A DNA stretch of 64,000 nucleotides, taken from contig CAWGHO010000002.1 in NCBI GenBank assembly GCA_963822445.1, positions 64,001 to 128,000 of the forward strand. The letters are read 5' to 3'. The notes beneath the pieces were generated by a model. The model was not told the origin of the DNA. It saw only the letters and a program-made list of their open reading frames with translations, and searched no databases. Shown here piece after piece: positions 32,856 to 56,024 of this stretch. A program made the translations under genes and the position numbers. The first letter of the stretch is position 1; each line of letters starts with the position of its first letter. The stretch is from an uncultured Acidobacteriota bacterium (GTDB lineage Bacteria > Acidobacteriota > Thermoanaerobaculia > Gp7-AA8).

Positions 32856-33651
32856 TCCCGGCGATGTAGTAGCGCTGCAGGAACATGAACAGCGCCAGCA
32901 CCGGCAGCACCGTCACCACCGAGCCGGCCATCATCAACTCCACGTCCTGCACGTGCTCACCGGACAGATTCGCGAGCGCGACCGGCAGCGTGTAATGGGC
33001 CTGATCGGAAAGGATGATCAGCGGCCACATGAAGTCGTTCCACGTCGACATGAACATGAACGTGGCCAGGGTCGCCAGAATCGGCCGCGCCAGCGGCAGC
33101 ACGACACTCCAGTAAATCCGCCACTCGCTCGCGCCGTCGATGCGCGCGGCTTCGAGCAGGTCCTGCGGCACCGACATCATGAACTGCCGGATCATGAAGA
33201 TGCCGAACACGGTCACCATCGACGGGATGATCGCCCCCCAGTAGCTGTTGACCAGGCCGAGGCCTTTCATCAGCAGGAAGAGCGGGAGCATGCCCACTTG
33301 CGGCGGGATCACCAACGCGATGAGAAGCACGCCGAAGAGCCGCTCCCGCCCGCCGAACCGCAACTTCGCGAACGCATATCCGGCCATCGAGCCGAAGAGC
33401 ACCGAGAAGACCGTGACGGCTGTCGCCACGATCGCGCTGCTCAGAAACGCGCGGCCGAGGTTGAGCCGCAGAAACAGCTCGCGATATTGATCGAGCGTCG
33501 GCTCGTGGGGCACGAGGTGCGGCGGAAAGGTGGTCGCTTCGCCCGGCGACATCAGTGATGCGGAGACCATCCAGAACAGAGGGAAGAGCGTGATGATCCC
33601 GCCGGCGATGAGCACGCCGTGCAGCAGGATGCTGTCCATTCGCCGGTTCAT
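32830..33651 (-). CDS. Carbohydrate ABC transporter permease
   Basis: AGYAFAK, EAARIDGA, WNDFMWPL; start MNRRMDS overlaps the upstream stop. Confidence 0.92.
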   Translation of the reverse strand: MNRRMDSILLHGVLIAGGIITLFPLFWMVSASLMSPGEATTFPPHLVPHEPTLDQYRELFLRLNLGRAFLSSAIVATAVTVFSVLFGSMAGYAFAKLRFGGRERLFGVLLIALVIPPQVGMLPLFLLMKGLGLVNSYWGAIIPSMVTVFGIFMIRQFMMSVPQDLLEAARIDGASEWRIYWSVVLPLARPILATLATFMFMSTWNDFMWPLIILSDQAHYTLPVALANLSGEHVQDVELMMAGSVVTVLPVLALFMFLQRYYIAGIMQGSVKG

Positions 33652-35830: not shown

Positions 35831-35832
35831 TC
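35741..35832. repeat. Inverted heptamer tandem repeat (GAATGCA)4 ... (TGCATTC)4 with a central hairpin
   Basis: Near-perfect ~92-bp palindrome with centre TCCGCGAT-ctgt-ATCGCGGA. Confidence 0.93.
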
Positions 35833-37216: not shown

Positions 37217-37226
37217 TTGTAAACCT

Positions 37227-41131: not shown

Positions 41132-41132
41132 G

Positions 41133-41148
41133 ATGTAAACGGTTACAT
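41133..41148. promoter_or_regulatory. LacI-family operator
   Basis: ATGTAAACGGTTACAT near-perfect palindrome with central CG, in the divergent lacI/GH1 gap. Confidence 0.8.
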
Positions 41149-41170
41149 TTTGGGGTACGCTACTCTCCTC

Positions 41171-42514: not shown

Positions 42515-42610
42515 ATGGAGTGCGGCGGCTCTGCCGCCGCTTTGACACCGCGCGGAGCGCGGCTCCGCCGCATCTGAAAAGCGGCGGCAGAGCCGCCGCA
42601 CTCCATCTAC
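42511..42610. repeat. REP-like composite palindrome (TGGAGTGCGG family)
   Basis: Perfect arms GTAGATGGAGTGCGGCGGCTCTGCCGCCGCTTT / AAAGCGGCGGCAGAGCCGCCGCACTCCATCTAC. Confidence 0.85.
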
Positions 42611-45192
42611 ATCGGCAACCAGTACGACAACTTCACCAGAACCACATCGTGCGACGGAGCCGTCGGGATCGCGCGCAGGTCGCGATTCAGGCTGAAGTCG
42701 CCGACGCGCTCCACGTCGGAACGGTTCTCGTTCCACACCACGTACAACGCCGAGCCGGGGCGGAACTCCCAGCGCACGACGGCGCTTCCGCGGACGCTGC
42801 GGAAATTGAAATCGCGGCTCGGCGCGGCGCCGGTGTACGGCTCGTAATCGCGAGTGCGCGCGGCCACGAGCGTGTGCGGATCGTGATAGTCGCCCGAGGC
42901 GATGAAGGGTTGGAGATAGAGCTGGAAGGAAAGCTGCGGCGTCAGCGTCCAGTCGGCGCGCGTCCCCAACTCGAACGAGCGTTGTTCCAACTCCGCGAAG
43001 AGATAGCGGATGCCGAATGTTTGCGTCGCGCCGTCGTCCTTGAATTTGTCGAGGAACTGCGTCTGCGTGTGCGACTGCGAGTAATAAGGATTCAGGCTGA
43101 GCTGGACGTTCGGCCTCGGTCTCGCGTTCAGCGACAGCCCGAAACCGCGCGTGTACGAACCGTCGTCGCTCCGGGACTGGTACGTGTTCACGTTGCCGTA
43201 GAACGTCTTGCGGTCATCGCTGCCGATGTGGCCGTCGAAACTCCACGAGCCTGGACTGCGCACCACCGGCCCGCCGCGGGTCAGGCGATCGTCGTAGCTC
43301 GACGGCGTGATGAAGACCGCCGAGCGGAACTCCCAGAAATTCTGCAGAGTGCCGAAACCGTCCGCGAAGAAGCCGCGCTCGATCGTGTCGCCGTCGAAAT
43401 TGCGGTTTTGCCAGCCACCGAACCAGAGATGCTTCTCGCGAAACTTCTTCGTCGGGTTCTGATTCACGTACTGCATCACGAAGTGCGAGGAAATGATGTC
43501 CGTGCGCTGCATGAAACCAGCGTCGTTGGTCTCGTATCCCGGCGAATACGCCTGCACCTGCACGATCGGACGCCAGATCCCGGTGGCCTTCGAGATCATG
43601 GCCTTGCCGCCCCAGCCCGTCAGCGACGTGCGGGTCTCGTCGAGCTCCACATGTCGCGCGTCCGGCCGCTGGTAATAGCGCGATGAGGATTGCTGCGTCA
43701 GCGAGATCGCTTCCTCGCTGCCGCTGACACTCGAGCCGAACAGCGAGCCTTCGAGGATCCAGGACTTGTCGCGGAAGCTCGTGTATGCATCCACACCACC
43801 GGTCAGCGCGGAATCGCGGAGCGACGTCATTTCATCCGGCAGGCGCCGATTCACCGACGTCAACAGGAAGCCGACGCGGGACCGGTCGCCGATCTCCTTC
43901 GTCAGGCGCGAGACGAAGTAATTCGTCATCGGCTCGACCTGCTCGCGTCCGAGCTCGATCTTGTCCTCGATGCCGTCTCCGTCCGCATCGACGCGCCGCC
44001 CGAATCGCGAGCGTTCCGCATCCGTCAACGCATCCAGCACGCCCAGCGACCAGCCGCCGGGCAGGCGACCGGTGATCTTTGCCGCGCCGAGGATCGTCGT
44101 TTCCGCGGGGGAGATGAAAAAGTCCGCGTCCGGCGTCACCTGCGGCGAGCGGCCGATGCGCCGCGTGTAGAAAAGGCTCGGCGCGAACATGAAATTGAAG
44201 TGACTCGGCGCCGGCGTGTCGCCGAAACGGAAGATGTTCACCCCTTCTGTGAAGAACGGCCGCTTCTCCGGATAAAAGGTCTCGAACTCGCTGAGGTTCA
44301 CGACCGCGGGATCGACTTCGACCTGTCCGAAATCGGGATTGATCGTGCCGGTCAGAGTGAGGCTCGACGTCAGCGCGTACTTCACGTCGAGCCCGGCGTC
44401 GACGCGATGATCCTGTCCGGGCAGCAGCGGATTGACGTCCTCGTCGAAACGCGTGCGCACGTCGCCGCGAGTCACCGCGTAAGGCACGAGCTCCAGCGAA
44501 CGGCCGCGGCGGATTCCCTCGATGCCGATAATGTCCGCGAAATGGGAGACGAAGCCGGTCTCCCCCTTCTTCGTATTGACGATGCGCGACCACTCGTTGA
44601 TGCGCGTGGTCCGCCGGGTGATGTTGAGACCCCAGGTGTGCACCGGCTTGTCGTGAAAGCGGAGCTGCGAATACGGGATGCGCACTTCGCCGATCCAGCC
44701 GTCAGGAACGATCTTGACCGCCGAGTCCCACACGCCGTCCCAGCTGCCGTCCTCGCCGATGTCGTTGTAGAGGACCGTGTCGACCTGCACGTTCGCCGGC
44801 GAGATCGTGAACGCGTTTCCGGAAAGGCGATCGAGCTGCGGATCGATGTTGATCGAGAGGAAGTCTGACTGCGTGAACGAATCGCGGCGCGCGAGGATGG
44901 CCGTGGGCGGCTGAGGGTCTTCCATCCTCGCGCCGAAATAGATCGCCTCGTCGTCGTACACGATGCGGATGCTCGTGCGCAGGGTCGCCGGCGCACCGTC
45001 GACGGGATCGTGCTGCGTGAAATCGGTGAACTCCGGCGCGTTCTGCCACGCCGCATCGGAGAGATCGCCGTCGAGCACCGGCGGCGCGGTCACGCGGACG
45101 GCGCGCAGTTGCGGACGATCGGGCCAGTTCGCGGCATGCGCGGCTCCGGCGGCGAGAAGAGCGAGGGCGGCGGCGAGCGCGCGTCTGTTCAT
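42607..45192 (-). CDS. CBM9-like + DUF5916 outer-membrane protein
   Basis: Signal peptide, LDGDLSD..W, YDDEAIYF, INPDFGQVEVD, FYPEKRPFF, FYTRRIG, terminal KLSYW. Confidence 0.85.
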   Translation of the reverse strand: MNRRALAAALALLAAGAAHAANWPDRPQLRAVRVTAPPVLDGDLSDAAWQNAPEFTDFTQHDPVDGAPATLRTSIRIVYDDEAIYFGARMEDPQPPTAILARRDSFTQSDFLSINIDPQLDRLSGNAFTISPANVQVDTVLYNDIGEDGSWDGVWDSAVKIVPDGWIGEVRIPYSQLRFHDKPVHTWGLNITRRTTRINEWSRIVNTKKGETGFVSHFADIIGIEGIRRGRSLELVPYAVTRGDVRTRFDEDVNPLLPGQDHRVDAGLDVKYALTSSLTLTGTINPDFGQVEVDPAVVNLSEFETFYPEKRPFFTEGVNIFRFGDTPAPSHFNFMFAPSLFYTRRIGRSPQVTPDADFFISPAETTILGAAKITGRLPGGWSLGVLDALTDAERSRFGRRVDADGDGIEDKIELGREQVEPMTNYFVSRLTKEIGDRSRVGFLLTSVNRRLPDEMTSLRDSALTGGVDAYTSFRDKSWILEGSLFGSSVSGSEEAISLTQQSSSRYYQRPDARHVELDETRTSLTGWGGKAMISKATGIWRPIVQVQAYSPGYETNDAGFMQRTDIISSHFVMQYVNQNPTKKFREKHLWFGGWQNRNFDGDTIERGFFADGFGTLQNFWEFRSAVFITPSSYDDRLTRGGPVVRSPGSWSFDGHIGSDDRKTFYGNVNTYQSRSDDGSYTRGFGLSLNARPRPNVQLSLNPYYSQSHTQTQFLDKFKDDGATQTFGIRYLFAELEQRSFELGTRADWTLTPQLSFQLYLQPFIASGDYHDPHTLVAARTRDYEPYTGAAPSRDFNFRSVRGSAVVRWEFRPGSALYVVWNENRSDVERVGDFSLNRDLRAIPTAPSHDVVLVKLSYWLPM

Positions 45193-45283: not shown

Positions 45284-46732
45284 ATGGCGCGCTTCCGCGA
45301 CCTGCCGATCCGCAGGAAATTGATGACCGGCTTCATGTTGACGAGCCTGGTCGCGCTGATCATCACCGTCGGCGTGTTCGTCCTGTATGACCGGGCCACA
45401 TTCCAGGAGGAAGTGCTCGAGGACACGAGCGTCCTCGCGGGCATCATCGGCGAGAACGCGGTCCCGTCGCTGCTCTTCAACGATGACGAAGGGGCAAAGG
45501 CGACACTGGCCGCGCTGCGGGCCAAGCCGGACGTCCTTGCCGCTCACCTCTTCGACAACGACGGGCGTCTCTTCGCCTCCTACTCCGGCTTGACGGCGAG
45601 CCAGCCGCCGGCGCGAGTCCCCGCCGATGGACGCCGCATCGAGCCGCGCATGATCACCGTCACCAAGCCGGTCCTCTTCAACGGCAACCGCGTCGGCACA
45701 GTCCATCTGCAATCCGGCCTCGGCGCGCTTCAGGAGCGGCGCCGCAACTACCTCCTCTTGTCGGGACTCGTCCTCGCTGCCGCGGCCGCGGTCGCGCTCA
45801 TCCTCTCTTGGCTCTTCGGACGCGCGATCTCCCGCCCCATCCTTCATCTGCTCGCGGCGGAGAAGCGCGTTTCCCGCGAGAAGAATTACGACGTGCACGT
45901 CGAGCGGCAGGCCAACGACGAAGTGGGAATGCTCATCGACGGCTTCAACGACATGCTCCGCGAGATCCGCACGCGCGACGCCGAGATCGAGGAGCGCCAC
46001 ACGCAGGAGATGGCCCTGGCCCGCTCGATCCAGACCTCGGTGCTCCCGCGCACCTTCGACTTCCCCGGCTTCGACATCTCGGCGGTGATGATGCCGGCCG
46101 AGGAGGTTGGCGGGGATTTTTACGAGTTCCGTGCGGTCGAGGGAGGCGCGTGGATCGGCATCGGCGACGTCACCGGTCACGGCGTCACCTCGGGCCTGAT
46201 CATGATGATGGCCCAGTCGATGTTCACCATGCTCTGCGAGAACTCGAACGGCCACGTCTCGCCGGCGAAGTTCATCTCGCTGATGAATCGGGCCATGTTT
46301 TACAACCTGCGCTCGCGTCTCGATCAGGACAAGTTCATGACCATGGTCGTGGCGAAGATCGATCGCGACGGAAAGATGATTTACGCCGGAGCGCATACCG
46401 ACGTCCTGGTGTATCGCGCGGCCACGAAGACCATCGAGCGCCTGCCGACCGACGGAATCTGGTTGGGAATCTCGGAAGACATCGAGGCCGCTACGACAAA
46501 TCGAACGCTGAATCTCGGGCGAGGCGACATCGCCCTGTTCCACACGGACGGCGTGACCGAAGCGCGCAACAGTGCCGGCGAGTGCTTCGACATGAACCGT
46601 CTCGCCCAACAACTCACCGAGCTGCAGGCGCGTCCCGCCGCGGAGCTCGTGACCCGCATCGCCCAGACCGCATGGTCGTGGGCAGGCACGCCGACGGACG
46701 ACGTCAGTCTGCTGGCAGTGAAGAGGAGCTGA
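45284..46732 (+). CDS. CHASE8-HAMP-PP2C (SpoIIE/RsbU/SiaA-like) membrane phosphatase
   Basis: Two TMs around a YfiN-like periplasmic domain (ENAVPSLLFND..A..L..L...G.LFASY), HAMP DEVG.L...FN.M, PP2C VGGDFY/GDVTGHG/TDGVTEA/DDVS. Confidence 0.9.
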   Translation: MARFRDLPIRRKLMTGFMLTSLVALIITVGVFVLYDRATFQEEVLEDTSVLAGIIGENAVPSLLFNDDEGAKATLAALRAKPDVLAAHLFDNDGRLFASYSGLTASQPPARVPADGRRIEPRMITVTKPVLFNGNRVGTVHLQSGLGALQERRRNYLLLSGLVLAAAAAVALILSWLFGRAISRPILHLLAAEKRVSREKNYDVHVERQANDEVGMLIDGFNDMLREIRTRDAEIEERHTQEMALARSIQTSVLPRTFDFPGFDISAVMMPAEEVGGDFYEFRAVEGGAWIGIGDVTGHGVTSGLIMMMAQSMFTMLCENSNGHVSPAKFISLMNRAMFYNLRSRLDQDKFMTMVVAKIDRDGKMIYAGAHTDVLVYRAATKTIERLPTDGIWLGISEDIEAATTNRTLNLGRGDIALFHTDGVTEARNSAGECFDMNRLAQQLTELQARPAAELVTRIAQTAWSWAGTPTDDVSLLAVKRS

Positions 46733-47217
46733 TGACGATGCAGACGCAGATCTCCAATGACTACGTCGAACTGAGATTCGGACCGCGATGGACGTACATC
46801 AGTTGCGTCCGTAAATTCGTGGCGAGCTTCTTCATGATCGGACTGGCCGACAAAGAGCGCGCCGAGCAGATCTCCATGGCCGCCTCGGAGCTCCTCGAAA
46901 ACGCAGTGAAGTACGCATCCGACGAGGATTCGTATCTGAAGATCTCCATCGCCAAGCAATCGAGCGAGGTCGATGTCTGCGTGCGCAACCGCGCCGAGCC
47001 GCATCACATCAATACGCTTCGCCGCGAGTTCGCGTTGATTCACGCCGGCGAATCGGAACAGGTTTATCTCAAGAAGATGGAAGAAGCCGCGCAGACCGAA
47101 GGGCAGAGCCGCCTCGGATTGATCCGCATCCTCTTCGAGGCCGGCGCGCGACTCAGGCTCGACGTCAACGACGGCGAGGTCTCCATTCACGCGATCTTCC
47201 CGCTGGAGCAAGCATGA
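46732..47217 (+). CDS. HATPase-fold switch kinase (anti-sigma/SiaB/slr1658-like)
   Basis: ASELLENAVKY N-box, SRLGLIRI G-box, no DHp His; TGATG coupling to the phosphatase. Confidence 0.78.
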   Translation: MTMQTQISNDYVELRFGPRWTYISCVRKFVASFFMIGLADKERAEQISMAASELLENAVKYASDEDSYLKISIAKQSSEVDVCVRNRAEPHHINTLRREFALIHAGESEQVYLKKMEEAAQTEGQSRLGLIRILFEAGARLRLDVNDGEVSIHAIFPLEQA

Positions 47218-47600
47218 GAGAGCCGATCAGTCCGCTCAAGGCCGAAGGGCTGTACATCATTCCGGAGATCGGCCAGGACCAGGTCATGCGCGTGGTCATG
47301 TCCGGCGCCGTGGAAATGCGCGATCCCGGCGACGCGCTCAATCCGTACTGGAACGCGATCGACGAACAGGTTCGTGAGCGTTCGATCAAGCGCGTCGAGC
47401 TCGACGTGCGCGACCTCAACTTCATGAACAGCTCGGGCATCCTCACGCTCGTCCGCTGGATCACGAAACTGAAGAACGCGCCGGCGTATCAGCTCGTGCT
47501 GGAGTACGACCGGAATGTGACCTGGCAGCGGACGAGTATCCCGACGCTCGCGAAACTCGCGCCCGCAGCCGTCGTCACATCGGAGATCAATGGGAACTGA
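47214..47600 (+). CDS. STAS-like anti-anti-sigma protein (SiaC/slr1659-like)
   Basis: LDVRDLNFMNSSGI phospho-acceptor motif; TWQRTSIPTL. Confidence 0.78.
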   Translation: MREPISPLKAEGLYIIPEIGQDQVMRVVMSGAVEMRDPGDALNPYWNAIDEQVRERSIKRVELDVRDLNFMNSSGILTLVRWITKLKNAPAYQLVLEYDRNVTWQRTSIPTLAKLAPAAVVTSEINGN

Positions 47601-49170
47601 TCTCACCTTCGTGGCCGGATCGTCGGCGCCTGAACTGCCGTGCAAATCGTGCGGCAGCGGCTGCAGGCCGATCGACCGCTACTGCAGTCAGTGCGGCGTG
47701 TTCAATCCGACGGGCAGTCTCGACGCGGACAACGCGTCGAACGAGATGCTGAACGCGCCGACGATCATCACTCACGACGTGCCCATTCCCGAGCGTTCCG
47801 CAACGTTCGTGTCCTCCGAGGAGGGAACGATGGTCGCGCCGCGCACGCGCCACGTGCCGCCGCCCGAAGGCGCGCGCGGACGGAATCGCAAGCGCAGCGA
47901 GGCCGAGGCGGCGAAGGCGCTCGAGGCGATGCTCGTGCCGGGCGGCGTGTTCGCGCGGCGCTACCGCATCCAACGTCTGCTGGGTGCCGGGGCGATGGGA
48001 CACGTCGCGTCGGCCATCGACGACTCGATCGATGAAGTCGTCGCCCTCAAGATTCTGTCCGTCCCCGTGCACGAGGATCCGGAGGCGTTCGAGCGCTTCA
48101 AGATGGAGCTGAAGCTCGCCCGCCGCATCCGCCATCGCAACGTCGTGCAGAGCTTCGACCTCGGATTCGCGGACGGTTATCCATACATCTCGATGGAGTA
48201 CATCGACGCGGACAACCTGTCGAAACATCTGCAACGGAAGCACAAGTTCGAGGAGAAGCAGGCCCTGGCGATCTTCCGGCAGGTGCTGCGCGGACTTCGC
48301 GCCGCGCACACACTGGGGATCATCCATCGCGACATCAAGCCGGAGAACATCCTCCTGAACAAGGACGAGGTCGCGTTCATCACCGATTTCGGCATCGCCA
48401 CCACTGCCGATCGCGTGCGCCGTCGCGAGATCGCGGGAACACCGGATTACATGGCGCCGGAACAGCTCCGCGGCGAGGATGTGCTGCCCGCTTCGGATCT
48501 GTACGCATGCGGCGTGATGCTGTACCGGATGGTCGCGGGAGCGCTGCCGTTCCGGGCGAGCACGCTCGCCGGCGTCATCGGCGCTCGCCTGCACGACGAT
48601 CCGCATCCGCTGACCGACAGCGGCGTTTCGATCGAGATGCAGGAGCTCATCGAATCGCTGTTGCGCCGCGATGTGAAGGACCGTCCGCAATCGGTCGATG
48701 AAGTACTCGATCGCGTCGATCTCATCGTGCGCCAGCAGCAAGCGAAATCGACAGGCTCGAAGCGGATGACGGTGCTCGTCGCCGACGCGAACGACGAGAC
48801 CCGCTCCTTCCTGACGAATGTGCTCGAGTCAGACGGCTATCGAGTGCTGCCGACGACCAATGCCCGCGATGCGGTGAACGCTGCGTTCGAACAGCAGCCG
48901 GCTGTGATTTTTCTCGACGCCGGAATTCGCGGCGGATTCGAATCGGCGAACGACGCCGCGTCGTCGCCCGAAACCGCCGACGGCCTGGGCTTCCTGCGCA
49001 TCGTCCGCGGCGACGAACAACTGCGGCGCGTGCCGGTGGTGGTGATGAGCGAGCACGCGCCCGCAGAATTGCAGGAGTCGTTCACGCGGGCGGGGGCGGT
49101 GGAGTTCCTGCTGAAGCCGTTCGCGGCGAGTGACGTGGCGGGGACGATGCTCCGCGCCGTTGCGAGCTAG
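47590..49170 (+). CDS. Hanks-type Ser/Thr kinase with N-terminal zinc ribbon and C-terminal receiver domain
   Basis: CKSC..CSQC; LGAGAMG, VALK, HRDIKPEN, DFG, YMAPE; REC VIFLD...DG...LLKPF; no TM segment. Confidence 0.9.
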   Translation: MGTDLTFVAGSSAPELPCKSCGSGCRPIDRYCSQCGVFNPTGSLDADNASNEMLNAPTIITHDVPIPERSATFVSSEEGTMVAPRTRHVPPPEGARGRNRKRSEAEAAKALEAMLVPGGVFARRYRIQRLLGAGAMGHVASAIDDSIDEVVALKILSVPVHEDPEAFERFKMELKLARRIRHRNVVQSFDLGFADGYPYISMEYIDADNLSKHLQRKHKFEEKQALAIFRQVLRGLRAAHTLGIIHRDIKPENILLNKDEVAFITDFGIATTADRVRRREIAGTPDYMAPEQLRGEDVLPASDLYACGVMLYRMVAGALPFRASTLAGVIGARLHDDPHPLTDSGVSIEMQELIESLLRRDVKDRPQSVDEVLDRVDLIVRQQQAKSTGSKRMTVLVADANDETRSFLTNVLESDGYRVLPTTNARDAVNAAFEQQPAVIFLDAGIRGGFESANDAASSPETADGLGFLRIVRGDEQLRRVPVVVMSEHAPAELQESFTRAGAVEFLLKPFAASDVAGTMLRAVAS

Positions 49171-49176
49171 GGCCTC

Positions 49177-49277
49177 GGGGAGCGGGCGTCCCGCCCGCGC
49201 CGCGTGGCCGTCATCGGCCGCGCGTGTGAGCGCCGGGCGACACGCCCGGCGCGAAGCGAGCGGGACGCTCGCCGTAC
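49177..49277. repeat. REP doublet (GCGGGCGTCCCGCCCGC family)
   Basis: GCGGGCGTCCCGCCCGC ... GCGAGCGGGACGCTCGCCGTAC between convergent operons; same family as 25592-25691. Confidence 0.7.
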
Positions 49278-49279
49278 GG

Positions 49280-52200
49280 TCAGTCGAACAGCTTTTCGGG
49301 AAGGACCACCCGCGGCAACTCCAGCGCGACGCGATACGACACCCTCGCGGGCGGCTTCTCATCGAACGTGATCCCCAGCGCCGACGGCGGAAGCGCGACG
49401 ATCTCGATCCGTTCCGGCGCAGGTCTCGGCGCCACGCGCTCATCGAGCGCCGCGAGTCCGCCGAGGTGCACCGGCGCCAATAAGCGCGTGTTGTCGAGAC
49501 CTTCAAGTGCAGCGATCAACGCGGTCCGGTCGCGCTCGGGCATCGGCGCGAAGGCGATGACAGGGAGCGGGACGGCATTGGTCGTGTGAATCACGCGCAG
49601 CTTTCCAGCGTGCTGCTGCAACAGCGGATTCGCTTCCGACACCAGCGCGGCCTCGGTCGTTCGGTAGAGCGCATTCACGACCGACGTCGCGTCGTCGGCG
49701 GTTCGCACGACCTTCGCGTCGCTTCCGCTGATGTCGCGCAAGCCTTCGGCGACGCTGATCGTGCGGCCGCGCAGATCCGCAAGCGACTGCACGTTGCTTC
49801 CCGCCGCAACGACGACCACCCGCCGATACGTCCGGCGATTCTCACGTGTGAACTGGAAACGCGGCCGGAGGTTGCTGGAACTGATGAAGTCGGAACTGGC
49901 GATCACCAGTCCGACGCGATTCGCGTTCGCGGCGATGAACGCGCGCGCATCATCTGCGCGCCTGAAGAACTCCGGACGCACGGCCACGCCTGCGGTCGTC
50001 GAAATCTGCGCGGCCAGCGCGGTGATCGTCTCGGCGAGCTTCTTCTCGTTTTCCGCCGGCGCATCGGGCATGAAGACCACCGCCGTCGGCCGCGGCTCGC
50101 TCGTCACCGGTTCCGCCTCGGGCTCCGGCGCAGGAGCACGCTCCGCCGCGAGCGCTTTGCGGATCTGATCCTCGTAACGACGCACGGCACTGTCTGCGAG
50201 TCCTGCCAGGCCCGCGGCGTCCGCCTTCGAAAACGATTCGCGCGCGTCCTCGAGTGAACCGGTCAACACGTCGAAGCTGCCGTTCAGGTAATGCGCAGCC
50301 GCACGCGCTCGCGAAGAAAGCGGAAGATCCATCGCCCGCTCGACGAGCTGCCGTCCGCGACGCACGGCCGACGAAGACACTTCGTCATTCGCGCGCGCGA
50401 GCCGCTCCACTTCCTCCGCGGCCTGCCCCAGCAACGCCACACCCAGGACCTGTTTCGCGCGATTGCAGATGTCCTCGGAACCACCGAACGACGCTTCGAG
50501 ACGTCCCGCGTTCATCACCGCTCCACCGCGTGGCTCGCACCGGCTAGCGCGATCGAGCAGCTCGGCGGCGCGATCGTATTTGCGCTCGGCCAGCGCGAGC
50601 TCGCCCGCGACAACGGCGACGTCGATCCACTCCGGATGCGCGGCTACGGCCGCGTTCACGTGCGCAAGCGCGTCCTTGTTGCGCCCGAGCTGCCACAACG
50701 CCAGACCGAGGTTGCCTCGCGTGAGCGGGTTCTGCGGAACCTGGCCGAGGATTCGCGCGGCGATGGCATGGCGTCCGGCGAGACCTTCGAGAACGCCCGC
50801 CAGCGCACCGGCCGGCTGATCGCGCTCCGCCTCGCCGGTCTTTCCTTCCGACGCGAGGAGCAGCGCGCGCACGGTTCTCAGACTGTTGAGCGTCTGCGCA
50901 TCCGCGGGCGGGTTCGTCGCAAGCAGTGCGTCGAGATGCAGGCGAGCTTCGGCGATCTCCCCCTGACGCATCAGCAGCATGACCAGGTTCGCGCGCAACG
51001 GCCAGAGCTCGCGACGAGCGGAATCGCGATTGAGAATTTCTTCGGAGAGCGCGCGCTCCTGCGCGATATCGCCATTCGCATGCGCGAGCAGGAACCGTTC
51101 GAAGACGAGCTGACGATCGGCGGGCGCAACCCGCGCCGCGATCTCGGCGATGCGCGCCGCATCGGCGGCGCGCCGATCCTGTCGATGGATGCGCAGCAAC
51201 TGCAGCAGCGAAGCGGTATCCGTCTCGCTGTAACGCACGGCTTCTTCGAACGCGAGCGCGGCCGCGGCGCGATCGCCACGCTGCAACTCGGCCCGTCCGA
51301 GAATCGGAAGCGCGATCGCGCGCACATCGGGGTCGTACCGCGGCACCCCTTCACGAAGCAGCCGCACCGCGCCCGCGGCATCGCCGCGCTTCAGGACGAT
51401 GTCGCCGAGGTGCACGTACGCGAGCGGCAACGCGGGATCGATTGCCAGTGCCCTTCGATACGCCTGCTCGGCCTCGCTTCCGCGATTGGCGTTGTAGTGA
51501 ATGAAGCCGAGGTTGTAGTGCAGCGATGCGTTCTTTGGATCGAGCCGCAGTGCCTTTTCATACGCCGCGGCGGCCATTGGCCATTGCTTCTGATTGATGT
51601 AGATCGCGCCGAGGTTCGCGTAGGCGCGGGCGTGGATCGGATCGACCTTTTCCTTCTTCGCGAACGACTGCTCGACAGGCGCCAGCGCGACTTCGTATGC
51701 CTTCAGGGCCTCGTCGAAGCGTCCCAGGTCGAACAGCACCGCGCCGAGGTTGTAGTAGGCGCGGAGGTTTTTTGCGTCCGCGTCGATGGCGTTCTGAAAC
51801 GCGGCGATCGCTTCGTCCTTGCGGCCAACGGCGTACAGGAGATTGCCGGCGCTGAAGTGATACCGCGATTCCTCAGGCTCGAGCTCGATCGCCTTCGCGA
51901 GCGCGACGAGCGCGTCGTCAGTGCGATTCAGCCCGCGAAGGATCGTGCCGCGCAGCGAGTGCAGCGCCGCGTCATCCGCCTTTTTCTCGATGGCCCGATC
52001 GACATACCCCAGCGCCTCGGCGGGCTTGCCGATCTGCTGCGCGACCGCGGCGGCGTTCGAGAGCAACGTGCGATCGGCGGGCACGTGCTCGACGCCCTTC
52101 ACGAAGACCGCGTAGGCCTCTTCGGATTTGCCACGCTCATGCAAGAGCGCGCCGAGGTTCACGTACGCGGAGGCGAGGTTCGGCGCGACTTCGAGGACGC

Positions 52201-52360
52201 GGCGGTACTTCTGAATCGCGTCATCGGCGCGGCCGGCCTCGCGTGCGCGGTCGGCTTCCTCCAGAAGACTGCGCGCGATCTCGGGCATCTCCTGCCCGCT
52301 CGATGATGCGGTCAGGAAGATGAGGATGATGAGAGCGAGAACGTGGAGGGTCGAGCGCAC
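49280..52360 (-). CDS. Secreted TPR-repeat protein with C-terminal PhnD/SsuA-type periplasmic binding domain
   Basis: Signal peptide, many TPRs (AYVNLG, AYYNLG, LHYNLG), Pro-rich linker, YRRVVVV...SLADLRGRTI PBP2 motif. Confidence 0.85.
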   Translation of the reverse strand: MRSTLHVLALIILIFLTASSSGQEMPEIARSLLEEADRAREAGRADDAIQKYRRVLEVAPNLASAYVNLGALLHERGKSEEAYAVFVKGVEHVPADRTLLSNAAAVAQQIGKPAEALGYVDRAIEKKADDAALHSLRGTILRGLNRTDDALVALAKAIELEPEESRYHFSAGNLLYAVGRKDEAIAAFQNAIDADAKNLRAYYNLGAVLFDLGRFDEALKAYEVALAPVEQSFAKKEKVDPIHARAYANLGAIYINQKQWPMAAAAYEKALRLDPKNASLHYNLGFIHYNANRGSEAEQAYRRALAIDPALPLAYVHLGDIVLKRGDAAGAVRLLREGVPRYDPDVRAIALPILGRAELQRGDRAAAALAFEEAVRYSETDTASLLQLLRIHRQDRRAADAARIAEIAARVAPADRQLVFERFLLAHANGDIAQERALSEEILNRDSARRELWPLRANLVMLLMRQGEIAEARLHLDALLATNPPADAQTLNSLRTVRALLLASEGKTGEAERDQPAGALAGVLEGLAGRHAIAARILGQVPQNPLTRGNLGLALWQLGRNKDALAHVNAAVAAHPEWIDVAVVAGELALAERKYDRAAELLDRASRCEPRGGAVMNAGRLEASFGGSEDICNRAKQVLGVALLGQAAEEVERLARANDEVSSSAVRRGRQLVERAMDLPLSSRARAAAHYLNGSFDVLTGSLEDARESFSKADAAGLAGLADSAVRRYEDQIRKALAAERAPAPEPEAEPVTSEPRPTAVVFMPDAPAENEKKLAETITALAAQISTTAGVAVRPEFFRRADDARAFIAANANRVGLVIASSDFISSSNLRPRFQFTRENRRTYRRVVVVAAGSNVQSLADLRGRTISVAEGLRDISGSDAKVVRTADDATSVVNALYRTTEAALVSEANPLLQQHAGKLRVIHTTNAVPLPVIAFAPMPERDRTALIAALEGLDNTRLLAPVHLGGLAALDERVAPRPAPERIEIVALPPSALGITFDEKPPARVSYRVALELPRVVLPEKLFD

Positions 52361-52366
52361 CGAGGC

Positions 52367-54406
52367 TCAGAAGTCTACTTCGAGCTGCGCGAAGAATTCA
52401 CGTCCCGGACGGGTCATATCAACGCCGATCAGCGTTTCCTTCGGCTGCTCGTCGAGAAGGTTGTTTCCGAAGAAGCTCAGGCGCACGGGACGGTCCTTCG
52501 CGCCGAGGGAGAACGGAAGCTCGTAACTGACGCGCGCGTTCACGAACGTGTAGCCGTCGAGCGGCCCGTACTCGAGACCGTTGAGGCCGTAGTAGAAGTG
52601 CGGCCCGAAATACGAATCGCGCCACGACAGCTCGACAGCGCCGCGCACCCCCGCGACCGGTCCGCCGTACGCGCCGATGTTGATCTTGTTCTGCGGCGCG
52701 TACACGAATTCGGTCTGCGTCTCGTCGCCGTCCTGCGTCTGATACGCGTAGTTGGCGAAGCCGGTAATGCTGCGCGCGAAGTTGGCCCGCAACTCCACTT
52801 CCCCACCCCGAATCGTCGCCTCGGCAGGCGCATTCATGAACTGCAGGCCGGACGGTACCGGGGGCGGATTCTCCACAATGCCGATGACCATGAAGTTCTT
52901 CACGCGCGAGTTGTACAGGTCGACTTTCGCCGAGACCGTGGGTGAGATCTGATATTCGCCGCCCGCTTCGAACGTGCGGATCTCCTCCGGCTGCAGGCCG
53001 GGATTGGGGATGAAGCTGGCCAGCGGAATCGGGCCGAAGGGCGTCGTCAGCGTGAGGAATCCCGTTTCCTGAAAGAGCTCGCTGAACGTCGGGAAGCGGA
53101 ACGCGGTGCTGTAGCCGCCGCGCACCACCAGCTTGTCATTGGGCGTGTAAACGAGTGCGGCGCGCGGCGACGTCTTCGAATCGAAGATGTCGGTCTTCGC
53201 GTCATAACGAAGTCCGACCACGGCGCGCAAACGCTCGCTGCCGACGTTGAACTGATCCTGAACGTAGTAGGCCAGCTTGTCGTAGCCGGTGACGAGATCG
53301 CCGCCCTGGGAGAGCTCGTGCGAGTGATCGGCGCGATCGAGCCGGCGCGCTTCGAGTCCGACCAGCAGGTCGTGGCCCGGAATCATGTTCAGGCCCGCGC
53401 GGAAATCGCCGATGGCCTGATAGCCGTGATCGGCTTCGTGCTCGAACTCCGGTTTCTCCGGCGCGGCATGACATCCGGCGCAGTGCATGCCCTTTCGGTG
53501 AACCCACGATAAGTCGGCAGAGAAAGTGATCGGCGCCTGCTCGCGAGCGCGTTGGTACTTGAGCGTCACCATCTCCAGAGTCTGGGTGAGCTCGTGCGCG
53601 GAGGTGAAGCTCGAGCCGGGAGGCAGGCCGGGAATCGGGAACGCCTCGCTGAAGCCGCCCAGCTCGTCGTCATGACGGTAGACGGAGAGCTGGAAATCCT
53701 TGAACGTGCCTTTGGCGAAGATCTCCGTCGCCTTGTACTTCGATTCGTTTTCCAGCCAGAACTCGGCCGGAAACGCGCTGCGGGTCAGCTGCACTGACCC
53801 GAGGATCGAGCCCCAGTCGAGACGGAGGCCGTATTGCGCGGAGACCGTTGCCGTATCGCGGCTGCCGCCGAACAGCTCGACGTTGCCGCCGGCGAGATCG
53901 TCACCCGACAAAGTGACGATGTTGATCACGCCCCAGTAGGCGTTCTCGCCGTACAGCGAGGATCCGGGACCGCGAACGATCTCGATCCGCTTGATGTTCT
54001 GGATGGGAAAGAAGTCGTAGGAGGGACTGAGCGGCAGGCCGCCGGTGTCGCCGGAGTTCATCGGCGTGCCGTCGATGAGCAGGAGGATGCGATTGGAAAA
54101 CGGGTTCTGGCCGAAGCCGCGAACGTCGACGGTGGGGCCCATCGGATTCCAGCGCACGTTCACGCCGCCGACGAGCCGCAGCAGGTCGGGAACGGTCCGC
54201 GCGCCCGATTCGCTGATCTGCTTCGCGGTGATCACCGTGACCGCGCTGGGTGCCTTCGAGATGGAGATCTCGGTCTTCGTCGCCGCCTGAACCTTCAGCT
54301 GCTCTTCGCCGAAGAGGGTGACTTCACCGATCTGACCGGATGGCGCAACCTGCGCGGATGTGGAAAACGTGAACGCGGCCAACAGAATCGCGGCGGTAAT
54401 GCGCAT
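52367..54406 (-). CDS. TonB-dependent receptor with a CxxCH motif in the barrel region
   Basis: APSAVTVIT, RILLLIDG, IKRIEIVRGPGSSLYG, GVINIVT plug; SPRAAL, AFRFP, LQPEE; terminal Phe; MHCAGCH. Confidence 0.92.
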   Translation of the reverse strand: MRITAAILLAAFTFSTSAQVAPSGQIGEVTLFGEEQLKVQAATKTEISISKAPSAVTVITAKQISESGARTVPDLLRLVGGVNVRWNPMGPTVDVRGFGQNPFSNRILLLIDGTPMNSGDTGGLPLSPSYDFFPIQNIKRIEIVRGPGSSLYGENAYWGVINIVTLSGDDLAGGNVELFGGSRDTATVSAQYGLRLDWGSILGSVQLTRSAFPAEFWLENESKYKATEIFAKGTFKDFQLSVYRHDDELGGFSEAFPIPGLPPGSSFTSAHELTQTLEMVTLKYQRAREQAPITFSADLSWVHRKGMHCAGCHAAPEKPEFEHEADHGYQAIGDFRAGLNMIPGHDLLVGLEARRLDRADHSHELSQGGDLVTGYDKLAYYVQDQFNVGSERLRAVVGLRYDAKTDIFDSKTSPRAALVYTPNDKLVVRGGYSTAFRFPTFSELFQETGFLTLTTPFGPIPLASFIPNPGLQPEEIRTFEAGGEYQISPTVSAKVDLYNSRVKNFMVIGIVENPPPVPSGLQFMNAPAEATIRGGEVELRANFARSITGFANYAYQTQDGDETQTEFVYAPQNKINIGAYGGPVAGVRGAVELSWRDSYFGPHFYYGLNGLEYGPLDGYTFVNARVSYELPFSLGAKDRPVRLSFFGNNLLDEQPKETLIGVDMTRPGREFFAQLEVDF

Positions 54407-54415: not shown

Positions 54416-55918
54416 TTACCAATCCGTCGGCTTGTAATCCTTGAGGAACTGCCCCCACATGTGCCGCCCGGTGTTGATGCCGTCGATGATGGGATCGACG
54501 ATGCGCGCGGCGCCGTCGACGATGTCGAGGGGCGGGTGGAAGCGGTGCTCGATGATCTTGCGCGCGGCGATGGCGGCCGGATCTTCATCGGTCACCCAGC
54601 CGGTATCGACGCTGTTCATGTGGATGCCGTCGGCGGCGTAGTCGGCGGCCGAGGTGCGGGTCATCATGTTCAGCGCGGCCTTGGCCATGTTCGTGTGCGG
54701 ATGACGCGTGGTTTTGCTGGTCCGGTAGAACTGCCCTTCCACCGCCGAGACGTTGACGATGTGCTTGTCGCGATTCTGCGTGCGCAACATGAGCGGCTTG
54801 AGTCGGGCGTTGATGATGAACGGCGCGACGGCGTTGACCAGCTGCACTTCCAGCAGTTCGACCGAGGACACTTCGTGGAGGAGCAGGCGCCAGGAGTTGC
54901 GGCCACGGAGATCGACCTGCTGCAGATCCTGATCGAGCCGCCCCTGCGGGAACAGCTCACTGTCCCGCACATGATCCTCGGGTAAGAGCGCGAGCTGCGA
55001 CATTTCCGCGGAAATCGCCGGCGCGCCTCCCTCGCCGAGCATGTGATAGCCGCGCAGTCCGGTGAAGCTTCCGACCAGCTTGCGCTCGTGCTCGGCCATC
55101 GTCTGCAGGGCGGTGGTCTCCCCTTCCATCATGTGCTCGTAGAACGCGGGCGGGCGGCGGACGGTCTGGCAGGCGTTGTTGATGATGAAGTCGAGACGGT
55201 CTTTCGTCGCGAGCATCTGCGCGCAGAAGGCCTCGACGCTCGGCGTGTGACGGAGGTCGAGGCCGTAAATCTCGAGCCGGTGCGACCACTCCGCAAAGTC
55301 CGGCTCAGCGGCGTAGCGCGCCGCCGAGTCTCGCGGAAAGCGCGTGGTGACGATGAGATGAGCGCCCGCGCGCAGGAGCTTGAGTCCGGCCTGATATCCG
55401 ATCTTCACCCGCCCGCCGGTCAGCAGCGCGACGCGTCCCGTGAGATCGGCGAGCTCGGTGCGCTTCATGAAGTTGAAGGCCGCGCACTCGGGACACATCT
55501 GGTCGTAGAAATGATGGACGGTCTGGTACTGCTCCTTGCAGACGTAGCAGTGGCGAGATTCGGCCGTCATCGGCGGCGCTTCCGCCACCGGTTCGCGAGC
55601 AGCCGCATTCAGAAAGTAGTTCGGCGTGTTGAAGACCGGCTTGCGCCGCAGCTCGCGAATGCCTGTCGACGTGAGCACGCTCTCGTCCTGCTGGGCGATG
55701 GCAGCCTTCCGCAGTCGCCGCGTGGCTTTCACCAGGCGCCGTCTCGAGCGAGGATCGGGATCGGAGACGACGCGCGTCGCGCGAAGCAACCGCTCGCGGT
55801 CTTCCGGCGTCAGCTCGGCCAGCAGGCCGCGATCGGCATCGATGGCCTCGAGGAATTCGGTAGCGGCGATTGCTCGCTCGCGGTTGGATGTCTCATTGTC
55901 GATTGCGCTCTTCGTCAT
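54416..55918 (-). CDS. SDR family oxidoreductase with N-terminal Zn-finger region
   Basis: CYVC...CPEC; LLTGGRVKIG, INNACQT, HTNMAKA, VDTGWVTDE. Confidence 0.88.
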   Translation of the reverse strand: MTKSAIDNETSNRERAIAATEFLEAIDADRGLLAELTPEDRERLLRATRVVSDPDPRSRRRLVKATRRLRKAAIAQQDESVLTSTGIRELRRKPVFNTPNYFLNAAAREPVAEAPPMTAESRHCYVCKEQYQTVHHFYDQMCPECAAFNFMKRTELADLTGRVALLTGGRVKIGYQAGLKLLRAGAHLIVTTRFPRDSAARYAAEPDFAEWSHRLEIYGLDLRHTPSVEAFCAQMLATKDRLDFIINNACQTVRRPPAFYEHMMEGETTALQTMAEHERKLVGSFTGLRGYHMLGEGGAPAISAEMSQLALLPEDHVRDSELFPQGRLDQDLQQVDLRGRNSWRLLLHEVSSVELLEVQLVNAVAPFIINARLKPLMLRTQNRDKHIVNVSAVEGQFYRTSKTTRHPHTNMAKAALNMMTRTSAADYAADGIHMNSVDTGWVTDEDPAAIAARKIIEHRFHPPLDIVDGAARIVDPIIDGINTGRHMWGQFLKDYKPTDW

Positions 55919-56024
55919 GGTTCCACGCGGTAACACCAGGAACAGTCATGGTAGTCCTTGTCGGCAGGTGAAGGTCAGCAGGCGATCACGTCGGAGGGAC
56001 CTCGTTGAACGGATCTTTTCGGAG

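Follow-up and report, generated by a model that had tools for sequence, protein, structure and literature searches.

Two converging operons in an uncultured soil-type bacterium may constitute an envelope signalling module that is specific to its lineage (Thermoanaerobaculia/Acidobacteriota) and built from known parts, with a relay running from a TonB-dependent receptor to a Ser/Thr kinase. We hold this reading tentatively, at slightly less than an even chance; the sequences point to known parts in a new combination, for which a relay is a plausible model. All six genes and their domains that a first-pass annotation had described in the 64-kb stretch of DNA analysed here (the window), together with the stop/start overlaps, both motifs (MHCAGCH and FMNSSG) and the REP-like palindrome between the operons, were found again in the open reading frames (ORFs), translations and Pfam matches. 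The features are as follows.

45284-46732, plus strand: CHASE8-HAMP-PP2C membrane sensor phosphatase (Pfam, NCBIfam NF053592)
45404-45709, 45812-45970 and 46142-46726, plus strand: its periplasmic CHASE8, HAMP and PP2C/SpoIIE domains (Pfam)
46732-47217, plus strand: small GHKL protein (HATPase_c_2/DUF6272, slr1658-like), 161 aa (Pfam)
47214-47600, plus strand: STAS protein (slr1659-like), 128 aa (Pfam and NCBIfam, both below cut-off)
47421-47438, plus strand: FMNSSG motif, STAS residues 70-75 with Ser73/Ser74 (motif search)
47590-49170, plus strand: Zn-ribbon-Hanks-type Ser/Thr kinase-REC protein (Pkinase 6.5e-55, Response_reg 1.4e-11)
47641-47697, 47962-48702 and 48772-49134, plus strand: its Zn-ribbon, kinase and receiver domains (Pfam, motifs)
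49171-49279, no strand: REP-like G+C-rich palindromic spacer of 109 nt between the converging operons (inverted repeats)
49280-52360, minus strand: secreted TPR + Phosphonate-bd (PhnD-like) protein, 1026 aa (Pfam)
52295-52360, about 50921-52279 and 49442-50059, minus strand: its signal peptide, TPR region and Phosphonate-bd domain; it also has a conserved C-terminal tail
52367-54406, minus strand: TonB-dependent receptor, 679 aa (Pfam Plug and TonB barrel)
53927-54262 and 54302-54331, minus strand: its plug and an invariant N-terminal stretch at the place expected for a TonB box; the barrel is of the 22-strand type
53468-53482, minus strand: CAGCH (CxxCH), receptor residues 309-313 (motif search, alignments)
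54416-55936, minus strand: SDR-family oxidoreductase with an N-terminal Cys-rich extension (Pfam adh_short)

Stop and start codons of the plus-strand genes overlap by 1, 4 and 11 nt according to the ORF calls. Wherever related loci reach far enough, the order PP2C-GHKL-STAS-kinase-REC is kept (GHKL in 16/16, STAS in 14/14 and the kinase in 14/14), and the four-gene operon is present in all 14 Thermoanaerobaculia loci with enough sequence. Gene order and overlaps establish the plus operon as a single, strictly conserved unit with predicted translational coupling, which, as first described, includes neither a sigma factor nor a diguanylate cyclase gene. On the minus strand, 6 nt separate the receptor gene from the TPR gene, and a seventh gene, encoding the SDR oxidoreductase, ends 9 nt upstream of the receptor gene. 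It is possibly co-transcribed with the receptor gene and probably not part of the module; a divergent fatty-acid hydroxylase gene stands in its place upstream of the receptor at a sister locus, L018. The spacer between the operons is likely to be a bidirectional transcript end. Its hairpin, GCGGGCGNNNCGCCCGC, occurs three times in the window (0.43 expected; 0 of 100 shuffles reach 3), and because the remaining two copies lie in a second convergent spacer (25585-25700) whose ends resemble the first, the label ‘REP’ is fair.

The sensor phosphatase combines SpoIIE (2.5e-36), CHASE8 (1.1e-16) and HAMP (3.9e-07) matches with two predicted transmembrane segments, one at residues ~13-35 and the other between CHASE8 and HAMP. 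This CHASE8 and SpoIIE architecture recurs in 116 of 120 homologues among the matches listed. Residues 8-229 score 210.2 bits against NF053592, the model for ‘YfiR-like-associated’ sensors (cut-off 194), and the L018 sensor scores 217.5 bits. That receptors, YfiR and CHASE8 sensors commonly form operons had been proposed in the first-pass annotation, and the pattern proves real: 46 of the 51 distant CHASE8 loci have a YfiR-like ORF that lies directly upstream and ends no more than 600 nt away (DUF4154 in 34 of the 36 upstream ORFs scanned), a TonB-dependent receptor match lies within 5 kb in at least 32 of the 51, and NCBIfam holds models for all three parts. Outputs of these 51 sensors include 42 kinase domains, one GGDEF-EAL and no PP2C. 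The absence of YfiR near the window sensor was likewise borne out, as a YfiR HMM matched nothing in the 64-kb window or in loci L001-L018, although the sensor passes the NF053592 cut-off. In a 66-row, midpoint-rooted tree, a single clade (SH-aLRT 100) unites the 14 PP2C sensors with that of L018, and its drawn position is among YfiR-linked sensors. Profile scores, neighbourhoods and tree together indicate that the CHASE8-HAMP part descended from sensors that stand behind a TonB-dependent receptor and a YfiR-like protein in other phyla.

In place of YfiR, the window encodes the TPR-binding protein, which matches many TPR families and carries a Phosphonate-bd domain (1.1e-10). We found 124 homologues with the same fusion; at L018 the two parts are encoded separately, the binding protein carrying a signal peptide of its own. 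The predicted model of the binding domain (mean pLDDT 88) has as its best Foldseek matches PtxB, ArrX, a sterol transporter, PhnD and AioX. The domain is not YfiR-like (hhalign probability 0.2%), the fold being PhnD/PtxB/AioX-like. The earlier suggestion that the protein replaces YfiR could therefore hold only for a non-homologous substitute, since the domain folds like PtxB, ArrX and AioX.

The receptor gives Foldseek matches to PirA, Cir, FepA, ChuA and BtuB (mean pLDDT of the model, 72.9), and its translation and Pfam matches reveal no N-terminal signalling extension between signal peptide and plug. By NCBIfam scores it resembles YfiR-cassette receptors no more closely than generic receptors (115 bits against NF053590, cut-off 645; 157 bits against TonB-hemin). 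Its only two cysteines, C309 and C312, belong to the MHCAGCH stretch (residues 307-313), which the model places in a loop between strands 293-307 and 324-339; by strand parity this would be extracellular loop 4, with pLDDT below 50 at residues 310-315. All 120 close homologues (120/120) carry CxxCH, and of the 88 library representatives whose sequence spans the site, 45 have the motif aligned, at identities as low as 27%; it occurs in none of 37 receptor-size ORFs upstream of distant CHASE8 sensors. Invariance of the motif thus extends over a broad receptor subfamily, and the feature appears to be undescribed: our literature search found no paper on a plug-containing TonB-type receptor with CxxCH in a barrel loop.

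Judged by its sequence pattern, the motif is probably a covalent heme c site on a surface loop. The loop-region residues that are invariant in 33 diverse members are C309, C312 and H313 alone (33/33; G306 in 30/33), exactly the minimal attachment motif for heme c, whereas the pair of residues between the cysteines varies. That the cysteines instead serve redox chemistry or bind a metal is an unlikely alternative on our estimate, although NCBIfam families of receptors that take their names from Cys/Sec motifs (FCYXU, CU, PCPU, PUIUD) give weak matches in the plug region, and FCYXU receptors are given as a CxxU type in a review table (PMC13188914). An extracellular loop, if parity assigns it correctly, would also be an unusual place for a heme that is attached in the periplasm, and nearby histidines that are invariant in close homologues (H308, H327, H345 and H361) could bind metal. 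These extra histidines are, however, lost in distant members, and in one representative (P0404) only one Cys stands beside the retained His.

Linkage of the two operons beyond the window, on which the first-pass model depended, holds in some relatives and fails in others. The receptor/TPR-binding-protein pair is near the sensor in three of seven informative PP2C-type cases. The TPR-binding protein lies 6 kb from the sensor at L002 and 3.6 kb from it at L015, where it adjoins a GATase_5 gene and the receptor is absent; at both loci, low-GC3 ORFs, including an antitoxin-like gene, intervene between it and the sensor operon. At L009, L011 and L012 (CHASE8-PP2C) and at L017 (another N-terminus), the ~7.6 kb that follow and the upstream sequence examined contained neither receptor nor TPR-binding protein. 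At L018 the sensor ends in a hybrid histidine kinase (HisKA-HATPase-REC-REC) instead of PP2C and still converges on orthologues of the binding protein, the TPR protein and the CxxCH receptor (60% identity to the window receptor, flanking genes different), with a REC-Ser/Thr kinase preceding the sensor; it is the only locus showing the module with a different output. As judged by identical ‘longest contig’ values, sensor and TPR-binding-protein matches paired 12 times (10 on contigs of at least 17.9 kb) and receptor and TPR-binding-protein matches 17 times. With three of the seven PP2C-type cases and L018 linked and the others not, the linkage is real but eroded: gene neighbourhoods place the sensor often, not always, near the CxxCH-receptor/TPR-binding-protein operon in this YfiR-less lineage.

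Since these loci belong to related genomes, some of their common gene order may reflect inheritance and not selection. It is conceivable, if somewhat unlikely, that these are two unrelated systems left side by side, with the CHASE8-PP2C protein sensing alone and the other operon serving uptake or surface redox chemistry (of a metal chelate, heme or an oxyanion) with an inner-membrane partner elsewhere. The four unpaired cases and the receptorless L015 would then be expected, and the operons are indeed separate, convergent transcription units. PhnD-family proteins are mostly transporter components, PtxB and PhnD are among the top structural matches of the binding domain, and the best curated matches of the receptor are heme/hemoglobin and siderophore receptor subfamilies. 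Against such independence, neither in the window nor at L015 or L018 does the binding protein have ABC permease or ATPase genes beside it; the L018 neighbourhood is kept despite its other output and flanks; shared contigs of 18-22 kb turn up repeatedly; and CHASE8 family members elsewhere are nearly always preceded by genes for a periplasmic partner and a receptor.

Downstream of the sensor, the PP2C (GGDFY, GDVTGHG, TDGVTE and DDVSL), kinase (VVALK, HRDIKPEN and DFG, with IFLDAG in the receiver) and STAS motifs are intact. The STAS protein falls below the cut-offs of Pfam STAS (4.1e-04, 20.5 bits; cut-off 22.6) and the NCBIfam slr1659 superfamily (56 bits; cut-off 100), and its FMNSSG, the conserved phospho-serine motif, aligns opposite the SSG stretch of SpoIIAA and is invariant in 15 of 15 sequences. 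The GHKL protein scores 29.2 bits against HATPase_c_2 (1e-06; cut-off 27.4) over profile positions 6-77 of 127 only, 27.3 bits against DUF6272 and 68 bits against the slr1658 superfamily (cut-off 100). A HATPase-like gene is therefore present, as the first-pass annotation had it, but its product is divergent and competence as a kinase is not evident from the sequence: the alignment has no recognisable DxGxG (G1) box, with V-C-V-x-N at the expected place, so that it may not be a kinase. We presume that it is the partner in the switch; it may also be the kinase that phosphorylates the STAS protein.

The switch could also be wired otherwise, with the kinase-REC protein phosphorylating the STAS protein, as an input that opposes PP2C, and the GHKL protein a non-catalytic partner whose released form, or a target of it, is the real output. 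We regard this as quite unlikely. It would suit the half-length profile match and altered G1 position, the complete catalytic motifs of the Hanks kinase and the rank of the GHKL protein as the operon's most conserved (83-87% identity across L001-L016), as expected for a contact hub. The GHKL protein nevertheless keeps an invariant N box (ELLENAVKYAS) and a G2-like SRLGL stretch, and RsbW is its best solved-structure match, though a weak one (E 0.41). At L017, moreover, STAS and GHKL are retained next to a kinase from which HRD/DFG and the receiver Asp have been lost, which means that the switch can occur where no Hanks kinase is active; L018 has a REC-kinase with no STAS or GHKL gene nearby.

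Under the relay that we favour, a ligand or redox signal from outside the cell would be taken up by the receptor or react with it, probably by way of covalent heme c, and the AioX/ArrX-like binding domain would report this to CHASE8 in the periplasm, with the TPR region as scaffold. HAMP would then set PP2C activity, leading to dephosphorylation of the STAS protein and a change of partner with the GHKL protein. This switch, rather than a sigma factor, would control the kinase-REC protein, which would phosphorylate targets; its sequence would allow that protein to be either the output of the switch or an input to it.

Among the closest known systems is the cassette of a TOL_0244 receptor, TOL_0243 YfiR-like protein and ‘HK_near_YfiR_like’ sensor (NF053590, NF053591 and NF053592), on which we found no paper. 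The window shares a CHASE8-HAMP part that passes the NF053592 cut-off and a TonB-dependent receptor encoded close to a secreted periplasmic protein. It differs in having the non-homologous TPR + PhnD-like protein instead of a YfiR-like one, a receptor that falls far under the NF053590 cut-off and contains CxxCH (0/37 there), receptor genes that converge on the sensor operon where the cassette has them upstream in the same orientation, and a PP2C instead of a histidine kinase output. YfiBNR (TpbB) of Pseudomonas and E. coli also has a CHASE8-type domain and HAMP (the window sensor scores 67.5 bits against DgcN/YfiN over residues 10-241), and its periplasmic protein is described as controlling the sensor and being acted on by an outer-membrane protein (PMC4655355). 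The window lacks the GGDEF output, YfiR and a YfiB-type lipoprotein, its outer-membrane component being the TonB-dependent receptor.

The plus operon resembles the RsbU-RsbV-RsbW and SpoIIE-SpoIIAA-SpoIIAB switches in its PP2C, its STAS protein with a SpoIIAA-aligned SSG serine and its small GHKL protein with RsbW as best match. Unlike them, it has no sigma factor gene, a GHKL protein of the DUF6272/slr1658 type without a clear G1 box, a transmembrane CHASE8 sensor as phosphatase and a Hanks kinase-REC as fixed fourth gene. SiaABCD of Pseudomonas aeruginosa (PMC7647112) similarly joins a membrane HAMP-PP2C, a kinase, a phospho-protein partner and a non-sigma output; the window proteins score only 88 bits against SiaA (cut-off 700) and 16 against the SiaB family (cut-off 85), the partner is a STAS protein and there is no diguanylate cyclase. 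A precedent for the proposed co-sensor comes from the three-component arsenic sensors AioXSR and ArrXSR, which pair a PhnD-family (PF12974) periplasmic co-sensor with a membrane sensor that has a Cache-like domain. A review table sets AioX (PF12974) beside AioS, annotated ‘sCache-like’ (PMC8050422), and CHASE8 is placed in the Cache-like clan (PMC8846402). The window binding domain is instead fused to ~740 TPR-rich residues and paired with a TonB-dependent receptor, and its candidate partner, by inferred interaction, is a phosphatase. Finally, the fused cytochrome-porin Cyc2 (PMC13664910) and the CXXCH-containing MtrB/PioB-type barrel of the GSU2204 family (NF041027; PMC13188914) are, like the window receptor, outer-membrane β-barrels with a c-type heme motif, whereas the window receptor is a plug-containing TonB-type barrel of 22 strands with the motif in a loop of the barrel and not in a cytochrome domain at the N terminus.

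The four plus-strand genes follow one another with overlapping stop and start codons, and they converge on two minus-strand genes across a 109-nt spacer made of G+C-rich palindromes. Every item in the first-pass annotation's description of both operons was confirmed, including open reading frames, domains, overlaps, motifs and the palindromic spacer. The genes of the region, with the evidence for each assignment in brackets, are:

45284-46732, plus strand: CHASE8–HAMP–SpoIIE/PP2C sensor, 482 aa, with two predicted membrane helices flanking CHASE8 (domain searches)
46732-47217, plus strand: GHKL protein (HATPase_c_2/DUF6272), 161 aa (domain searches)
47214-47600, plus strand: STAS protein, 128 aa (domain searches)
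47590-49170, plus strand: CxxC...CxxC ribbon, Hanks kinase and receiver (REC) domain in one protein, 526 aa (domain searches, motifs)
49280-52360, minus strand: secreted protein with many TPR units and a C-terminal Phosphonate-bd domain, 1026 aa (Pfam)
52367-54406, minus strand: TonB-dependent receptor, 679 aa, 6 nt ahead of the gene for the TPR-binding protein (Pfam)
54416-55936, minus strand: SDR oxidoreductase, followed after 9 nt by the receptor gene (Pfam)

The G+C content of the window is 0.61-0.67, and the nearest relatives of the genes in the region come from metagenome-assembled genomes of Thermoanaerobaculia (Acidobacteriota). A REP-like element is common to two convergent spacers with similar 3' ends, 25585-25700 and 49171-49279; both carry the hairpin GCGGGCGNNNCGCCCGC and a second hairpin, CCGGGC...GCCCGG. 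Promoter and terminator scans gave no signal above shuffles. The genes that flank the operons are unrelated to them (PCMT, methyltransferase and glycosyltransferase genes on the right), and the remainder of the window is ordinary chromosome. Immediately left of the plus operon is a sugar-utilisation cluster (31806-45192) with an ABC sugar transporter, a glucoamylase-like protein, a CarboxypepD_reg-type outer-membrane barrel, a LacI regulator, a GH1 glycosidase and a CBM9/DUF5916 protein. The SDR protein has an N-terminal extension of about 160 residues with a CxxC...CxxC pair, and has no conserved counterpart at the same position in L018, the locus of a sister sensor. Elsewhere in the window, Mfd-like domains (CarD_TRCF_RID; helicase C and TRCF) occupy two separate open frames (17964-20132, plus strand), which could reflect a frameshift, a split gene or an artefact of frame filtering. 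A phage-type integrase gene (11697-12872, minus strand) adjoins a Crp-like regulator within 10985-12872, and the pair could mark a small integrated element.

The plus operon is conserved as a unit. A homologue scan with one genome per species yielded 80 loci, and L001-L016 encode full-length orthologues of the sensor phosphatase that are 63-70% identical to that of the window. Where the contigs are long enough, the same gene order follows downstream (GHKL protein in 16/16 loci, STAS protein in 14/14 and kinase–REC in 14/14), and the GHKL protein is the most conserved component, at 83-87% identity. The PP2C domain of the sensor matches SpoIIE at 2.5e-36 (Pfam) with its metal-binding motifs intact, and the Hanks motifs VVALK, HRD and DFG of the kinase are likewise intact. 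The STAS protein scores 20.5 in Pfam, below the cut-off of 22.6; its FMNSSG motif is invariant in 15/15 sequences, and the SSG stretch aligns with that of SpoIIAA. The GHKL protein keeps the N box and a G2-like stretch, but its G1 box is unrecognisable and the Pfam match ends at position 77 of 127, so we withhold assignment as a kinase. Its matches in the ESM Atlas are small HATPase_c_2/DUF6272 clusters, most commonly from Myxococcota. The top-scoring NCBIfam families for the GHKL and STAS proteins are the slr1658 and slr1659 superfamilies, at scores below the cut-offs (68 versus 100 and 56 versus 100, respectively).

Neither the operon nor its immediate surroundings contain a sigma factor gene, in the window and in L001-L017 alike. 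The receiver aspartate is retained in the inspected kinase–REC sequences except that of L017, which implies further histidine-kinase input to the kinase–REC. L017 (9383-13129) carries a divergent version of the operon: the N terminus of its phosphatase is not CHASE8, the GHKL and STAS genes are kept, and its kinase reads HRE and DLG where HRD and DFG would stand, with a receiver that lacks the aspartate.

The sensor itself has a traceable ancestry. Its N terminus (residues 8-229) passes NF053592, the NCBIfam model for a ‘sensor histidine kinase, YfiR-like protein-associated’, with 210.2 bits against a cut-off of 194. Among the fetched loci, 51 match the N-terminal part of the sensor alone; we refer to these as distant loci. 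A YfiR-like HMM match ends at most 600 nt upstream on the same strand in 46 of the 51, and 32 have a recognisable TonB-dependent receptor no more than 5 kb upstream. By Pfam, 34/36 of the YfiR-like upstream open reading frames scanned are DUF4154 and 2/36 are PilZ. NCBIfam models exist for all three parts of this cassette (NF053590, NF053591 and NF053592), although we found no paper on receptor–YfiR-like cassettes. Thus, the pattern of TonB-dependent receptor, yfiR and CHASE8 genes that the first-pass annotation had described is real and common. The outputs of the distant sensors are histidine-kinase domains in 42 cases, GGDEF–EAL in one and PP2C in none; the remaining eight, mostly truncated, have PAS only or no output domain.

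By contrast, neither the window nor any of L001-L018 has a match to an HMM built from YfiR-like proteins of 33 loci. When 66 CHASE8–HAMP sequences were placed in a tree (midpoint root, ‘quick’ search), the 14 PP2C sensors grouped together (SH-aLRT 97), and adding the L018 sensor gives a clade with a support of 100, drawn among the YfiR-linked sensors. The nearest neighbours of this clade (L032, L063 and L024) have a weak upstream YfiR match (E ~1e-4 to 1e-8) or none, and divergence of the periplasmic partner may already have set in there.

What stands opposite the sensor in the window is the TPR-binding protein. Its C-terminal domain matches Phosphonate-bd (PF12974) with 47.8 bits against a cut-off of 27, and the model of this domain (mean pLDDT 88) has a type II binding-protein fold. 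The best structural matches are PtxB (Foldseek E 7e-16, TM 0.63-0.71), ArrX, a sterol transporter, PhnD, AioX, XAC2383 and the VFT2 domain of BvgS. We considered whether the domain might be a YfiR homologue and rejected this: Pfam at E values up to 10 returns Phosphonate-bd only, hhalign gives a probability of 0.2% for YfiR against the binding-protein profile, and no YfiR is among the listed Foldseek matches. In signalling systems, the binding proteins AioX and ArrX have the role of first component (PMC5908839), and in a review table AioX (PF12974) is listed with AioS as its sensor (PMC8050422). The neighbourhoods examined show no ABC transporter genes near the TPR-binding protein. Given that observation and the AioX/ArrX precedent, a role of the binding protein as a co-sensor would be reasonable. 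The predicted complex of the binding domain with the periplasmic domain of CHASE8 (residues 36-155) has a median score of 0.21, against a mark of 0.32, and speaks neither for nor against a contact. We found no paper on PhnD-like proteins together with receptors and sensors.

The first-pass annotation joined the two operons into one system; their linkage is seen in some loci and lacking in others. In L018, a sensor 54% identical to that of the window in its CHASE8–HAMP part has a HisKA–HATPase–REC–REC output. Convergent to this sensor are genes for a PhnD-like protein, a TPR protein and a receptor, the last with 60% identity to its counterpart in the window and with GMHCAGCH kept, and a HisKA-like–REC–Ser/Thr kinase gene abuts the start of the sensor gene. 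The flanking genes are unlike those of the window. The TPR and PhnD-like parts in L018 (10133-13419) are separate overlapping genes, with a binding protein that has its own signal peptide; thus, either the protein in the window is a fusion of two units or that of L018 is split.

Among the PP2C-type loci, the gene for the TPR-binding protein lies beyond the kinase–REC gene by 6 kb in L002 and by 3.6 kb in L015. The gap in L015 (14225-17275) holds open reading frames of low GC3, including a SocA/Panacea antitoxin-like gene and an InlB B-repeat protein, and looks like an insertion into the convergent spacer. Upstream of the TPR-binding-protein gene, L015 has a GATase_5 gene rather than a receptor. 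In L009, L011, L012 and L017, by contrast, receptor and TPR-binding protein are absent within about 7.6 kb downstream and in the available upstream sequence. Across the 80 loci and the window, an HMM of the PhnD-like domain matches only in the window, L002, L015 and L018. The linkage is therefore present in 3/7 informative PP2C-type cases, the window included, and in L018.

We judged metagenomic co-occurrence indirectly, by identical contig sizes among the best 120 homologues listed for each family. Among these listed matches, contigs of the same size recur 12 times between the sensor and the TPR-binding protein (including 17,908, 18,151 and 21,898 bp), 17 times between the receptor and the TPR-binding protein and 7 times between the sensor and the receptor; by a rough estimate, shared sizes under 10 kb (7862 and 9751 bp) may be due to coincidence. 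The linkage in 3/7 PP2C-type cases and in L018 is far above chance for unrelated genes but looser than a strictly required partner would show, and common ancestry accounts for part of it.

The receptor is a canonical plug-and-barrel transporter with a conserved N-terminal stretch at the expected position of the TonB box. Its only two cysteines form CAGCH (residues 309-313; 53468-53482, minus strand). The CxxCH motif is present in 120/120 close homologues. The site is covered by 88 of the best 150 matches among 45,482 library representatives; an aligned CxxCH occurs in 45 of these, at identities as low as 27%, and the 43 that lack it are all at most 37% identical. Across 33 diverse members, C309, C312 and H313 alone are invariant in the region, and the two middle residues vary. 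The CxxCH-bearing receptors make up a broad subfamily (P0368-P0422), in which one representative, P0404, has the second cysteine only and keeps the histidine. Receptor-size open reading frames upstream of the distant CHASE8 sensors have no CxxCH (0/37). By strand parity, the motif would be placed in extracellular loop 4, in a part of the model with low local confidence.

An invariant Cys-x-x-Cys-His is the signature of covalent heme c attachment. From its sequence, the receptor motif is probably a site of this kind; the alternative, that the same residues serve as a thiol or metal site, is the less probable of the two. We saw no Ccm or Ccs maturation genes within the 64-kb window, and found no description of CxxCH TonB-dependent receptors in the literature, which was incompletely covered.

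An iron theme is weakly hinted at by three observations. The best curated matches of the window receptor are heme receptors. Directly after the kinase–REC gene and on the same strand, two loci encode a Fur-family regulator and an FTR1 iron permease (L011, 4129-5398; L012, 4158-5430). Additionally, Synechocystis with a disrupted slr1658 recovered less well from iron limitation, according to a passage in PMC7555055 that cites Zer et al. 2018.

The first-pass annotation had proposed a relay from the receptor through the TPR-binding protein, in the place of YfiR, to the CHASE8 phosphatase, a partner switch and the kinase–REC as output. This model is supported in part, for its architecture and for the evolutionary replacement of YfiR; the individual steps differ in strength. 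By analogy with Rsb/SpoIIA, the PP2C domain would probably act on the phosphorylated STAS protein, which would then switch partner with the GHKL protein. The kinase–REC likely belongs to the same pathway as the sensor and the switch, because it is the fixed fourth gene and because a REC–kinase is also found beside the L018 sensor. It could equally well be the output of that pathway or the kinase of the STAS protein. For the first step, we consider it possible, if somewhat doubtful, that the receptor and the binding protein hand a periplasmic signal to CHASE8.

All parts come from known families and their combination is new. In it, a sensor from the YfiR-associated CHASE8 family has PP2C as its output, the switch lacks a sigma factor and is joined to a Hanks kinase–REC, a PhnD-like protein fused to TPRs is found in the place of YfiR, and the receptor belongs to a subfamily defined by CxxCH. 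A joint reading can be framed in which CxxCH receptors are a widespread, undescribed class whose members carry covalent heme c in a loop at the cell surface. Those of Thermoanaerobaculia would sense redox state, metal or iron and signal through a TPR-tethered PhnD-like protein to the CHASE8 phosphatase, a sigma-independent switch and a Ser/Thr kinase, forming a complete pathway from the outside to the cytoplasm in the place of the YfiR relay. Taken whole, this reading is unlikely.

If the wiring is true, the widespread receptor–YfiR–CHASE8 cassette can exchange the relay in the periplasm as well as the output in the cytoplasm. It would also follow that the end point of a partner switch can be a Hanks kinase rather than a sigma factor, and that TonB-dependent receptors can signal outside the classical sigma/anti-sigma route. 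A receptor subfamily with an invariant heme c motif would be a new type of outer-membrane cytochrome, relevant to the metal and redox biology of Acidobacteriota, which are abundant and uncultured.

Known systems compare with this arrangement as follows. The PP2C phosphatase with its metal-binding motifs is like that of Rsb/SpoIIA-type switches, whereas their sigma factor target is absent here. SiaABCD differs as well: scores are 88 against a cut-off of 700 for SiaA and 16 against 85 for SiaB, and there is no cyclase. FecA-type transducers have an N-terminal signalling extension, whereas the plug of the window receptor starts at residue 49, preceded by a signal peptide and a short conserved stretch only; sigma and anti-sigma genes are also absent. 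YfiBNR differs in that GGDEF, DUF4154 and OmpA-like genes are absent from 35.8-64 kb of the window. The YfiR-associated cassette shares the N terminus of its sensor, above the NF053592 cut-off, with the window, but the window has no YfiR-like (DUF4154/NF053591) gene beside the sensor, and its output is SpoIIE/PP2C rather than a histidine kinase. The window receptor scores 115 bits on NF053590 (TOL_0244 family) against a cut-off of 645, which most cassette receptors also miss (1/7 tested passes, with 672 bits; the others score 89-618). Its NCBIfam and tblastn scores against cassette receptors are not above those of generic receptors.
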